Part shown: positions 2,944-63,685 of the stretch, piece after piece
How positions within the stretch are numbered: position 1 is the first letter of the stretch
Layout: each line of letters opens with the position of its first letter
NCBI GenBank assembly: GCA_964016885.1
Contig: OZ024743.1
Coordinates: 6,324,001-6,388,000, forward strand
DNA from: Eledone cirrhosa
Lineage: Eukaryota
Length of the DNA: 64,000 bases
Reading direction: 5' to 3'
The notes under the pieces: generated by a model
Databases searched by the model: none
What the model saw: the letters and a program-made list of their open reading frames with translations, nothing else
What the model was told of the DNA's origin: nothing
Made by a program: the position numbers and the translations under genes

Positions 2944-3172
2944 AGTAATAATAAAATTTGAAGACTAAAATCCAAAGAGGGCTTGATAAGGATAAATATA
3001 TATCAAATATATAAGAACCGTAGAGCAAATATTTATTAAAATAACAGATTAAAGTTAAAGCAAAGAATCGCTGCTTTCACCCTTAACGGGATCTTCTGAA
3101 ACAGTTTCAGAAGATCCCGTTAAGGGTGAAAGCAGCGATTCTTTGCTTTAACTGTAATCTGTTATTTTAATA
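2944..3172. mobile_element. Minimal PLE hairpin insertion: palindrome 3034-3172 (centre 3103) with tail 2944-3033
   Basis: Arms are reverse complements (one mismatch); each carries HHR-like CAGAAGA-TCCC-GTTAA-GGGT-GAAA; same family at 48946-49080. Confidence 0.75.
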
Positions 3173-3500
3173 TATGTGTGTGTGTGTGTTATCAAATTGA
3201 TAATGAAAATAAAAAGAACAAAGTTAAGTTACTTTATAACTTTGTTTTTATTTTGTTGTTTTTATTTTTATTAATTTAATACCTAATATCTGACTCTGTA
3301 TCTAAAGAATTAATTCAGCGAAACACAGAACTTCTCTGTGGATTTTACAAGATTAGATTTGAGTTCTATCTACGGTACCGACCCTACCACCAGAGGTAGA
3401 CCAGAATGAAAAAAGAAAACATATATCTATATATATATGTGTGTGTGTGTGTAATATATATATATGTAAGAAAAACCACAGACCTTCCATCTCAACTCTA

Positions 3501-3533
3501 CTTTTGAAAAGCAGAACTGCGAAACCGGTAAAG
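3501..3533 (+). ncRNA. Minimal hammerhead-like motif (TTGAAAA core variant) in a solo pLTR
   Basis: CTT-TTGAAAA-GCAG-AA-CTGC-GAAA-CCGG-TA-AAG: stems I and II, palindromic stem III, GUA site. Confidence 0.55.
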
Positions 3534-3870
3534 GAACCAAATAAATATATATATTTTAAAAAAAATAAGACTCCAGTTGCATTTTCGATTTCATCTTTTT
3601 TTTCTTTATATATATATATACGAATAATATTTCAGCGAGATCGAATTTAGATATATCCTGTCTCTAATCAGCTGTGCTATAACTCTTTCAGTGGTCGAAA
3701 ACAAAGCGAAACGCTATTTCCGATATATGCGGCAAGCGCTCCATGGACTAAAAAAAAGACCAGATATATATATATATATATATATATATAAATCTACATA
3801 CATACATATATACATACATACATTTACATATGTATATAGCTATGCATTTATACATTTGTATATATATATA

Positions 3871-59565: not shown

Positions 59566-60318
59566 TTATATATATACATATATATATATATATATATATA
59601 TATATATATATATATATATATATATATATATATATATATGTATACATATATATATATATATATATATATATATATATATATATATACATATATATACATA
59701 TATATACATATATATATATATATATATATATATATATATATATATATATATATATATATATATATACATATATATATATATACATACATATATATATATA
59801 TATACATATATATATATACATATATATATATGTATACATACATATATATATATATATATATATACATACATATATATACATATATATATACATATATATA
59901 TATAGATATATATAGATATACATACATATATATATATATACACATATATATATATATATATATATACATACATATATATATATGTATATATATACATACA
60001 TATATATATATATGTATACATATATATATATATATATATGTATATATATATATATATATATACATATATATATATATATATACATATATATATATATATA
60101 TACATATATATATATATATGTATATATATATGTATATATGTATATATATATATATATATATATATATACATATATATATATATATATACATATATATATA
60201 TATATACATATATATATATATATACATATATATATATATACATATATATATACATATATATATACATATATATATATATATATATATATATATATATATA
60301 TATATATATATATATATA
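59566..60318. repeat. ~750-bp interrupted (TA)n microsatellite
   Basis: Direct reading. Confidence 0.95.
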
Positions 60319-61724
60319 TGGGGAGGAGGGTGATTTTGGACACCCTGCGAGATGAAAAACAAAACCCGTCAAAGGGCGGAGGAACTCAGGAGAGTCAATG
60401 ATCCTCCAATAAAGCTTTCTTTTTTTTGTGGAGCAGGAGATTCCTGATCTTCATTAAGACATCTCTCAAGGATATAAAACCTACGACTTCATTTGCATCC
60501 AATAATATAGACCAGTTCTTCTTTTGGGGTAAATACATTCGGTGTGATAGAGGGACTGGCCCCGTGCAAAGCCTTTCCTCACTTAGAAAAGTTTCAAACT
60601 TAGGCATCGATTGATTGAGCCTTGTACTGCAGTTATGTTGTTGCACCTTTAAACATATCGAATGCAGTACTTATTTCATCGATCTTCTATTATCGAACTG
60701 GTAAGTTACAGGCCTACAAAACGGCTGTTAATCGGTGTAGAGGTAAACACAGAGACAGACAAACTGACAGACAGACACACACATATATATAGATAAGATG
60801 TTACTAATTAAGACTAGTAACACCATTATTCAACTTAGTACTCTATACTTCAGAAAAGTAGAATGTAGATATTATTGTAAGATAGATATGTCCTACCATC
60901 AAACTTATATCGTTTCGGTATTGAAAAACTATACTCGCATGTCTCTCTCTCTCTTTATATATATACATGTATATATTTTATATACAAGGTCTTCTCTAGC
61001 ATGATGTAAAACATAGCTTGGATGGTCTGTCTAAATTGCATGGTGTGCATACGTTTGGCAACGTAATTAATTAAATAAATATTTACACCAGAAGGCAGCG
61101 TGTATTGGACGGTTTAAGATAAGTCTTAATATTTAATTCGTTTCGATTAGAAACGTATGCACATAATACAATTTCAGCTATATTCTACATCCTGTTTGAC
61201 GTATATAATGTAGCTAAAATAAGATTCTGCTATTCACAAAATCATATAAGTAGTTATCTTCTGATGGGGAAACATAAACCTCTGAATTGCGTTGAGGTAA
61301 TACGTTATGTTTGTTGTCTACATAGTAATATAGAAAGTGTTTTTACTTTAATCTCATCACAAAGGCTTCTAATTTAAAAACTATACTTATATCTACATCA
61401 AATTTACCTTATATTCTCTAATACGCGTTGTGTTCTCCCATAAATATTTATAATTCATTTATATACTATTAAGCTTTATAATTGGCTCAAGAGGATAAGT
61501 GATCCAAAACTTGGCGAGTGCTTTGCGTCGAAACTTCAGTCCCTTATGTAGCTTAACAACCAATAAATTATATGTATGTGTATTTTTGTGTATGTTTCTT
61601 GGACTTTTGTTGTCTTCTGTTTGGGGTTCTCTCTCTCTCTCTCTCTCTCTCTCTCTCTCTCTCTCTCTCTCTCTCTCTCTCTCTCTATATATATATATAT
61701 ATATATATATATATATATATATAT

Positions 61725-63685
61725 AACTTATGTTTACCGAATTCACAGACTAGACCCCTTCTTCCTCCCGTTAGACCGGTGCGAAATTCCTTCCTTGCTC
61801 ACATTTCAACCAGGTTTGATGGTCTTTATTCTCTCTCGTTCACGATTTCACCGAACTTATATTCATGGAAATTTTTGGACTTGACTCGCTTTTCCTCACT
61901 TTTCGTTGCTTCACCATCTTTGTTTGTTTACACTCTCGCTGTTCCCTTTATTTACGTGTCCCAACGACTTTCTTTAGCCGTTGCTCGCACCAACCGGAGG
62001 TATATGGTCTTTAAAGCGAAGAAATACCGGTGATGGTTGGAAGATCACTGATGAAGGACCACTTTATTTATATATATATATATAGAAAGGATAACAAGGA
62101 CGATTGATTACTCCTTCATTGCATTTATTGGTAGGTGACGCGCGTTTCGCCACTGATCAGCTCAAGGTTCGATCTGTATCGATCCTACCCGACTCAATAA
62201 TCGGCGGCTCGACGGACCCTTTAAAATGCTATAAGAAAATGAAATACATGCTATGTGGTAAAGCCAGAATTTCAAGAGTTTGACAAAATGAGTTGTTTTG
62301 ATTGGTGGGAAGGATCAAAACAACTCATTTTGTCAAACTCTTGAAATTCTGGCTTTACCACATAGCATGTATTTCATTTTCTTATAGCATTTTAAAGGGT
62401 CCGTCGAGCCGCCGATTATTGAGTCGGGTAGGATCGATACAGATCGAACCTTGAGCTGATCAGTGGCGAAACGCGCGTCACCTACCAATAAATGCAATGA
62501 AGGAGTAATCAATCGTCCTTGTCATCCTTTCAATATATTACACTCTGTATAGCTAGCTCTACACCTCATCACAGAAGTGAACCTAAACATCGAGTGCTCT
62601 CCCGGGTGAACCTGCAGTAACTCCAAGTTACACCCGCTGGATATATATATATATATATATATATATGATAATAATGGAGCTGCGGCGCTGCAAATGGGTT
62701 ACATATGAAAAAGTTTGTCCTCATCAGTGGCCTTCCAACCGTCGTAGGCATTTCGTCGCATTAAAGGCCATATACCTCAGGTTGGTGCGAGCAACGGCTA
62801 AAAAAAAAGTCGTTGGGACACGTAAATAAAGGGGACGCTAGGGTAAACAAACAAAATGGTTTAAGCAGCAGAAAGTGATGAAGAAGGAAACAAGTCCTAG
62901 ATTTCTATGAATATAAATTCGGTGGAATCGTGAACGAGAGAATAAAGACCATCAAACCTGGTTGAAATGTGAGCAAGGAAGGAATTTCGCACAGGTCTAA
63001 CGGGAGGAAGAAGGAGTCTGGTCTGCGAATTCGGTAAACATAAGTTCTGTGAAGTCGCAGACGAAAGAGAGAGAAAAAAATTCATACCGGCTTGGCCAAG
63101 TGCCCGCGAGAAAAGGATTACGGACAGGTCAAACGGGAAGAAAGGGGAGGATGAGAGGTAGTGACAGAGAGTGAGTGAGTGAAAGGTGAGGAAGAGGCTA
63201 ACAGAGAGAGAGACTGCTAGAAAGGGTAAAGACACAAAGAACGAAACAGACTAGTGGCAGCGGAGGAAAAAATATATGTGTAAATATGGTAATAATGGAG
63301 CTGCGGCGCTGCAAATGGGTTACATATGAAAAAGTTTGTCCTCATCAGTGGCCATCCAACCGTCGTAGGCATTTCGTCGCATTAAAGGCCATATACCTCA
63401 GGCTGGTGCGAGCAACGGCTAAAAAAAAAGTCGTTGGGACACGTAAATAAAGGGGACGCTAGGGTAAACAAACAAAATGGTTTAAGCAGCAGAAAGTGAT
63501 GAAGAAGGAAACAAGTCCCAGATTTCTATGAATATAAATTCGGTGGAATCGTGAACGAGAGAATAAAGACCATCAAACCTGGTTGAAATGTGAGCAAGGA
63601 AGGAATTTCGCACAGGTCTAACGGGAGGAAGAAGGGGTCTGGTCTGCGAATTCGGTAAACATAAGTTCTGTGAAGTCGCAGACGA
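61725..63685. repeat. Three copies of a ~400-bp unit: 61725-62065 (inverted, diverged), 62669-63064 and 63290-63685 (direct)
   Basis: Shared text and shared pseudo-ORF NLCLPNSQTRPLLPPVRPVRNSFLAHISTRFDGLYSL; direct copies offset by 621 bp. Confidence 0.85.
62085..62641. mobile_element. PLE hairpin: 218-bp arms (62085-62302 / 62314-62531), 11-nt loop, tail 62532-62641
   Basis: Near-perfect inverted repeat; GCGAAACGCGCGTC hammerhead 3' half; (TA)n flanks. Confidence 0.85.

Follow-up and report, generated by a model that had tools for sequence, protein, structure and literature searches.

How does a retrotransposon come to lie in the genome as two head-to-head copies of itself, with an extra tail on only one of them? 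The question is raised by a window of 64,000 nt from Eledone cirrhosa (contig OZ024743.1, positions 6,324,001 to 6,388,000), a stretch of AT-rich, repeat-rich, animal-type DNA in which we checked fold-backs by comparing the window sequence with itself. The inserts concerned are insertions of endonuclease-bearing (EN+) Penelope-like elements (PLEs) and, likely, of short non-coding derivatives of PLEs. They probably arise by twin priming, in which two complementary DNAs (cDNAs) are started from both strands of the target, at two sites set by hairpins in the RNA, and are then joined in the centre by end-joining.

The sequence-only reading of this window had listed nine palindromes with outward 3' ends and a one-sided tail, always inserted in (TA)n, and had taken this architecture to be the rule. 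An inverted arm pair with a tail on one arm was found in eight of the nine (56-2806 aligned nt, 96.4-99.9% identity), the paired arms adding up to 10,956 bases, or 17% of the window. In all eight the tail is confined to one arm and measures 66-134 nt; the tailless arm stops at what we call the short end, and the other arm continues through the tail to the long end. The ninth (48946-49080; inserts are named here by their first position) has no inverted arms. It consists of a tail piece, which matches the outer 63 nt of the 2944 tail in reverse complement, and of one attached arm with the same starting base as the right 2944 arm. Pure TA stands on both flanks in six of the nine, while in 2944, 28185 and 31034 one flank has either a short run of TA or a repeat of mixed TA, TG and CA. 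The outward orientation holds for five inserts: hammerhead cores lie on both arms of 28185 and 31034, a long-stem core marks 17274 and 31564, half-cores are present in 52965, and the endonuclease frames in 17274, 28185 and 31564 agree; for 2944, 16548 and 62085 only the tail hairpin or partial cores bear on it. Arm lengths, said to vary independently, do so in the four long asymmetric inserts but not in the four short inserts, where the starts of the two arms coincide or are at most 11 nt apart. Nor is the architecture the rule, since at least six PLE-type pieces in the window have a single arm, and five fold-backs have neither tail nor hammerhead core: the two-armed form is frequent here, but it is neither universal nor the sole source of palindromes.

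Arm ends proved to be fixed within families. The two independent inserts 17274 and 31564, which belong to one family and are 93% alike, have both ends in common. For the family of 28185 we compared a public sequencing run (X1, which may be the source sample) with the sense arm, 28545-29913, where the summed depth is not a copy number; 21,923 contigs fell on this arm and 150 of them exit at 29847 into (AT)n, which confirms a fixed short end. Three runs of other organisms gave few or noisy records on the same interval (662, 38 and 3).

The coding remnant of 17274 and 31564 (P0001) carries a CxCX5C linker together with CxxC and CxH motifs around a conserved E and N. These motifs define the Hydra clade of EN+ PLEs in the available part of PMC8557442, and on their strength we assign both inserts to that clade. 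A full HMMER search with the Hydra endonuclease returned 4967 matches, with CxCX5C in 111 of the best 150 relatives, among which are full proteins with reverse transcriptase (RT) and endonuclease; the relatives of the 31564 protein are RT-endonuclease fusions. Hydra-clade RTs are further marked by DKT and RWK motifs. DKT is present in 5/8 long relatives and in 17/18 long frames of the outside loci described below; the window copies are truncated and lack the RT. The Hydra endonuclease gave no match in two word-index protein searches, and a scan of viral contigs gave 51 pattern matches and no relative. The 28185 frame (P0002) has a CX4CxxC linker, a CCHH pattern and a C-terminal endonuclease, as in Neptune-type elements, whose clade is marked by a CX2-5CxxC linker and a CCHH motif (PMC8557442, available part); judged by these motifs, 28185 is a Neptune-type PLE. 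Its sister copy at 49227-51792 retains an RT detected by Pfam RVT_1 at an E value of 1.4e-4, below the curated cut-off. Pfam did not recognise the endonuclease pieces of the window, and GIY-YIG was identified from its motifs.

Full hammerhead cores in sense orientation were found in 28185, in 31034 and in the 17274/31564 family; the core is partial or altered in 2944, 52965 and 62085, and none is clear in 16548. At 38511-38665 and 22435-22595 the hammerhead has an unusually long (~115 nt), well-paired stem II, and the loop of the tail hairpin is enlarged in this family too. Among the Rfam matches listed for the window (150 of 338) there were only simple-repeat, microRNA-like ones below the gathering score, and Rfam gave five chance matches in 10 outside loci, with no hammerhead or tail hairpin. 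Five inserts (2944, 16548, 31034, 52965 and 62085) have no coding part and no coding partner in the window; their anatomy, their hammerheads (full in 31034) and a common tail hairpin point to PLE origin. An identity as miniature inverted-repeat transposable elements (MITEs) or other DNA fold-backs was ruled out by the one-sided tail in all eight; the symmetric fold-backs of the window are separate and lack hammerhead cores.

Which arm bears the tail, and how the ends are paired, is informative about the mechanism. In 31564 and 28185 it is the long arm that bears the tail; in 17274 it is the short arm, as in locus L050, which comes from another assembly and has a short inverted arm. The long arm of 17274 is the left one: it runs on the minus strand into the endonuclease frame and is 95% alike to the long arm of 31564 over 1432 nt. 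One family thus shows both tail arrangements with two identical ends. A fold-back copy can hold nothing that is absent from its template arm, and the short-arm tails of 17274 and L050 therefore point to two priming events. All eight pairs, moreover, combine one short end with one long end, and the window yielded no PLE pair with two short or two long ends; if ends were chosen independently, the probability of this outcome would be at most 0.5^8, about 0.004. The pairing suggests that both hairpins may be used on one RNA, and the near identity of the arms agrees with this. Finally, the junction of 17274 contains one short inverted and one short direct copy of adjacent sequence. Templated insertions of this kind are a pattern of end-joining.

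The hairpins themselves are clearest in relatives. As an outside test set we used the best 80 of 154 confirmed Hydra-clade matches in public metagenome contigs (209,553 nt) and a strict pattern, GCTC-N4-40-GAGCRCT, which fixes four outer pairs. The pattern occurs 52 times in sense and never in antisense (shuffled mean 1.0, maximum 5), and 36/52 copies lie within 250 nt after the hammerhead cut. In the 42 distinct motif sequences inner pairs 1-3 are paired in 98, 74 and 81% with a 2-nt bulge, far less with other bulge lengths, and their sum was reached in 0 of 5000 partner shuffles. The first inner pair, which the pattern does not demand, is paired in 39/39 rows of alignment A5 (U-A 21, C-G 17, U-G 1) with 17 double changes, counts of covariation that are inflated by the kinship of the sequences. 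The motif is tandemly doubled ahead of the start codon in 17 reference stretches from 16 loci, the copies lying 59-69 nt apart (three of these references were assembled from the overlapping ends of a contig). Four of the 13 references compared are one family, and median identity is 64%. In 13/14 cases the first ATG lies 15-24 nt beyond the second copy.

These two hairpins are in register with the 3' ends. Of 37 3' ends tried, 17 without a close reference were dropped and 20 were mapped: 10 lie 1-11 nt before hairpin 1, eight lie from 9 nt before to 6 nt into hairpin 2, and two are uninformative (one alignment broke early, one end is at a contig end). With 3' ends at either hairpin, the tail corresponds to hairpin 1 plus the spacer up to hairpin 2. 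Among published consensus sequences (entries 3-22 of 22 in the PMC8557442 supplement), Hydra-1_Ajap opens with both hairpins, two other Hydra elements have one hairpin near the 3' end, and Hydra-1_Crog opens with an apparent variant in which an outer pair is compensated. By eye, the 5' ends of Chlamys-9_cRei and Chlamys-1_cAtm in the same entries show GCTC...GAGCACT-like stems near the start, hinting that the motif may reach beyond the Hydra clade.

In the window tails the element takes the form of a bulged hairpin, RCTC...GAGY, whose GAGY is complementary to RCTC and comes after a 1-2 nt bulge and another, variable stem. It begins 4-11 nt past the short end in 8/10 tails and in 0/10 on the antisense strand; the controls gave 2-14 of 5000 shuffles and 30 of 18,258 background windows. 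The motif is missing from the tail of 2944, which has one mismatch (its sister 48946 has the matching half), and from the Neptune-type tail. A model built from 39 outside sequences made 11 matches in the window, of which the top one is the tail at 15360 in the 15180-15456 copy (E 0.004). For the window families the register of the long end is borrowed, by analogy, from the relatives. Folding energies of the tails alone are mixed (z +0.15 to -3.5).

Under twin priming, the endonuclease would nick the self-complementary (TA)n on both strands; the RT docked at hairpin 1 would start at the short end, and a second RT, docked at hairpin 2, would start at the long end. Both cDNAs would be copied upstream and end at variable points or, in the short derivatives, at a shared template end, the second cDNA presumably displacing the first, and host microhomology end-joining would connect the inner cDNA ends. 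A very short cDNA from the long end would leave a tail plus an opposite arm, as in 48946 and 52632; failure of one side would leave a single-armed copy, and perfect palindromes would form where both cDNAs stop at the same template position. The hairpins would be protein-binding sites, and protein binding, a dimer, strand displacement and joining are predicted steps of the scheme. Whether both hairpins are occupied at once on one RNA is an even call, the alternative being two RNAs from one source locus. A more specific version assigns the two tandem docking hairpins to the two subunits of an RT-endonuclease dimer, each of which would prime from one strand of a double-strand break and begin its cDNA a few bases upstream of the hairpin it occupies, a single RNA being copied twice in this way, in opposite directions; we put this forward tentatively, at somewhat under an even chance. 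Two cDNAs primed from both ends of a break at two fixed RNA positions had already been proposed in the sequence-only reading. The PLE identity, the fixed ends and the signs of priming from both sides (tail on either arm, short-plus-long pairs, micro-insertions) uphold that proposal, a part of which is largely anticipated, as two start sites with extension of both strands had already been shown in vitro for one PLE (PMC11167929). The hairpin pair that appears to set the two positions was not noticed in that reading, and its picture of PLEs as a genome-wide palindrome generator is overstated.

A number of observations weigh against this reading. The hairpin rule for the window was relaxed after the tails had been inspected; the window variant is ACTC...GAGT as against GCTC...GAGC in the relatives; and across the window the relaxed pattern is not enriched by count (10 matches, shuffled mean 4.9, maximum 11). 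The model built on outside sequences alone found two more tails weakly (E 1.5 and 6.4) and missed the others. A second hairpin was not seen in the window, where no Hydra copy extends past the long end. The Neptune-type tail has no motif, and its candidate duplication (the tail against the start of the 49227 copy) is not significant (127 of 2000 shuffles). In the relatives, three pairs of mapped loci are duplicates, which reduces the 3' ends to eight at hairpin 1 and seven at hairpin 2, and an inversion junction is present in only 7/80 loci, though short-read contigs break at such repeats. Three further points favour particular alternatives: the short arm of 17274 has some 130 nt of simple repeat that its long arm lacks, which fits a single template only with later loss; the centres of four inserts are symmetric, with spacers of 0-11 nt and self-complementary sequence in two cases, and fold-back priming fits them equally well; and the four outer pairs, set by the pattern, are invariant in alignment A5, and the motif could act in DNA, as an endonuclease recognition site, rather than in RNA.

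In fold-back self-priming one cDNA would snap back, or an antisense RNA would prime itself, and copy the first strand, after which the endonuclease would trim the second arm at a fixed site and leave one tail. Self-priming on an antisense template has been proposed for rotifer Penelopes (PMC3846280, available part) and endonuclease resolution of the tail in the available part of PMC8557442, and the symmetric centres and nearly identical arms suit such a route. A copied arm must, however, lie within the first arm, which excludes a tail on the short arm. Precisely such a tail is seen in 17274 and L050, and in 48946 and 52632 a full arm faces a piece of tail only. The route gives no account of a second hairpin in register with the long end, and start sites in vitro match both tail ends (PMC11167929). 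As a general explanation it is unlikely, though some of the perfect palindromes may still be made in this way. If the two cDNAs came from independent RNA-protein particles of one source locus, with either start site open to each particle and with hairpins that bind but form no obligate pair, the simple-repeat differences between the arms of 17274 would be explained; in vitro the start site is the same for either strand (PMC11167929), and single-armed copies end at either site. Such freedom sits poorly with the 8/8 window pairs, the two tail-plus-arm inserts and L050, all of them short plus long, and we find it rather unlikely.

The doubled motif might instead act in DNA, the endonuclease recognising it in an integration intermediate or donor copy, cutting just upstream and setting the ends after synthesis. 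Drosophila tail DNA is reported, in work cited in PMC11167929, to be necessary for endonuclease cleavage, the outer pairs are invariant, and some full-length copies (L021, L036, L057) begin at these positions. The strict sense-strand occurrence, the compensatory inner pairs and the fixed 2-nt bulge speak for a structure in RNA, as does the coincidence in vitro of RT start sites on RNA with the tail ends (PMC11167929), which makes a DNA-level role very unlikely. As for an assembly or library fold-back artefact, or chance head-to-head insertion in the same microsatellite, microsatellites here do gather separate insertions (61726-63687), and neither the long end nor the window's own junction is among the joints and loose ends listed for run X1. 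On the other hand, arms of the same insert differ by point changes and one arm of 52965 alone carries a long terminal repeat (LTR) element with a target duplication; no insert has (TA)n at its centre; tail ends are fixed by family; arms are 99.6-99.9% identical within an insert versus 93% between inserts; L050 has the same anatomy in another assembly; and strand-changing joints do occur in run X1 (2 of the 15 listed, of 68 in all), at other positions and in other copies. We give an artefact or chance almost no credence.

Twin priming is known from LINE-1 elements: once the second strand is nicked, it serves as primer for another cDNA, and microhomology joins the resulting inversion. In LINE-1 this primer finds its upstream site by homology, and the two parts do not overlap. 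In the inserts described here both cDNAs start close together in the 3' region, at sites that are fixed and non-homologous, which makes the arms inverted repeats. For PLEs, the available part of PMC3846280 gives head-to-head as the most frequent arrangement of the pseudo-LTRs (pLTRs), with an optional tail on one inverted pLTR and palindromic junctions; the cases with a tail on the short arm argue against its self-priming model as a general route. PMC8557442 describes, in its available part, inverted 5'-truncated copies, one-sided tails of 30-40 nt and (TA)n targets in the Hydra clade, and treats the origin of tandem and inverted PLE structures with a tail as an open question. Our inserts share with its Hydra-clade EN+ PLEs the C-terminal GIY-YIG, CxCX5C linker, CxxC/CxH, hammerhead, (TA)n, inverted copy and one-sided tail, and differ in their longer tails. 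The doubled hairpin and its register to both ends go unmentioned in that part of the paper, and "hairpin" and "stem-loop" have no match in its available main text and supplement, though its consensus sequences contain the motif.

In PMC11167929 a single PLE protein (PAc; Poseidon, Anolis) cuts and extends both strands in vitro; two internal start sites bound the tail, RNA downstream of the start sites is required, a dimer is predicted, and the steps after priming are left unvalidated. Our reading agrees with PAc on the two start sites, the cutting and extension of both strands, the required RNA, the predicted dimer and the AT-rich target. PAc nevertheless belongs to a different clade; what is described for it is one stem-loop at the start site rather than a duplicated element, and inverted arms are not connected in the main text with the two sites and two strands, as they are here. 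A retrozyme preprint (10.64898/2026.07.22.740005) derives retrozymes from pLTRs and, in its available part, does not mention hairpins. No publication that proposes twin priming or a doubled hairpin in PLEs turned up in a literature search that stopped short of subscription papers and of entries in Repbase. Already published are the architecture, the targeting of TA and the two RT start sites (PMC3846280, PMC8557442, PMC11167929); apparently new are the tail on either arm, the short-plus-long pairing, the doubled hairpin and its register to both ends. The features of the window are collected in the table.

Table. Two-ended inserts, single-armed PLE-type pieces and an inserted LTR element in the window (positions in the 64,000-nt stretch; a slash separates left and right arm).
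Position	Strand	Arms	Tail	Tail hairpin	Remarks
2944-3172		3034-3102 / 3104-3172; 69 nt, 1 mismatch	2944-3033, minus, 90 nt		
16548-17258		16648-16837 / 17065-17258; 190 nt aligned, 97.9%	16548-16647, minus, 100 nt	16614-16643	227-nt spacer
17274-22792		long, minus, 17274-21031; short, plus, up to 22658; outer arms 817 nt, 99.9%	22659-22792, 134 nt, on short arm	22663-22743	assigned to Hydra-clade PLEs; long arm holds end of GIY-YIG frame; junction ~21032-21055 with templated micro-insertions
28186-29901		short, minus, 28186-28544; long, plus, 28545-29835; 348 nt aligned, 98.6%	29836-29901, 66 nt, on long arm	none of Hydra type	assigned to Neptune-type PLEs; GIY-YIG frame ends 29453; hammerheads 29655-29697 (+), 28376-28334 (-)
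31034-31478		31034-31213 / 31214-31393; 180 nt, 99.4%	31394-31478, 85 nt	31398-31422	perfect fold-back, no spacer; outward hammerheads on both arms
31564-38859		short, minus, 31564-34373; long, plus, 34374-38728; 2806 nt aligned, 99.75%	38729-38859, 131 nt, on long arm	38733-38813	assigned to Hydra-clade PLEs; GIY-YIG frame 34375-34977; long-stem hammerhead ~38511-38665
48946-49080		one arm, plus, 49010-49078	fragment, minus, 48947-49009		2944 family; tail fragment and arm head to head
~52632-52905		one arm, plus, ending in (TA)n	whole, minus, 52632-52728	52698-52718	tail and arm head to head; absent from the sequence-only reading
52963-55243		52963-53020 / 53021-53076; 56 nt aligned, 96.4%	55175-55243, 69 nt	55182-55201	named 52965 in the text
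53077-55167	minus				2.1-kb LTR element splitting the 52965 arm from its tail; LTRs 365 nt, 97% alike; 4-nt target duplication
62085-62640		62085-62302 / 62314-62531; 218 nt, 99.5%	62532-62640, 109 nt	62542-62595	11-nt spacer; hammerhead core partial only
15180-15456	+	single		15364-15383	hammerhead 15248-15314; long end in (TA)n
1794-1991		single			
16264-16426		single			
~39140-39290		single			
39290-42582		single			
49227-51792		single			

Within the Hydra family, 18096-19595, 32396-34093 and their inverted partners hold a degenerate TA/CA repeat of 1.5-1.7 kb and a 900-nt AT-rich repeated region; this repeat cargo (captured microsatellite) sits in the 3' part, between the coding end and the hammerhead. 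The single-armed copy at 39290-42582 is a C-rich, near full-length Neptune-type PLE with RT and GIY-YIG remnants and no inverted arm; its 3' region is repetitive over 1.3 kb, a hammerhead lies near 42465, and the copy ends in TA. The 49227 copy opens with the same six bases that close the 28185 tail. Among the outside loci, the full-length copies L021 653-3156, L036 973-3378 and L057 951-4602 begin at the short-end or long-end position, adjoin (TA)n and are unit-length monomers without an inverted arm. A further possible tail at 16151-16244 (hairpin match E 0.86) ends in (TA)n, and a 50-nt piece at 16429-16477, common with 23411-23459, stands head to head with a single arm; both may be more two-ended inserts.

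The tailless fold-backs at 22894-23362, 24043-24417, 46938-47888, 51792-51964 and 58955-58992 were rejected as members because they have no hammerhead core. The first four are symmetric and MITE-like; 22894-23362 lies in (TA)n, 46938-47888 is nested and 51792-51964 interrupts a PLE endonuclease frame. Also rejected were the inward-pointing pairs 15229/16386 and 61725/63046, which are 84-87% alike and likely separate insertions. Around the 62085 palindrome, at 61726-62076 and 62667-63687, three copies of another short family lie in (TA)n, two of them in tandem, with a hammerhead-like core of different order. The LTR element at 53077-55167, at the border of arm and tail, has by eye primer-binding-like and polypurine-like sites and no evident pol frame. 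Elsewhere, LTR-retrotransposon pol frames (RT, RNase H and integrase by eye) occupy 4658-7845 on the minus strand in two pieces, flanked by direct repeats at 3885-4319 and 8897-9334 that are 98% alike.

For PLEs, the hairpin pair would explain the head-to-head arms and one-sided tail, long unexplained in this group. The doubled hairpin is a concrete cis-element, which predicts that start sites track the hairpins and that inserts are always short plus long, and the existing in vitro assay is suited to it. In practice the motif helps to set the boundaries of Hydra elements, and such fold-backs are not to be called MITEs or assembly errors. If each of two docking hairpins does serve one copy, PLEs would have a distinct, two-ended retrotransposition cycle, explaining inverted pLTRs, the tail and its one-sidedness together, and the doubled hairpin would be a compact and hitherto undescribed internal priming signal. 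PLE RTs form the sister group of telomerase, and an RNA element that determines the start of copying therefore bears on the evolution of RTs.

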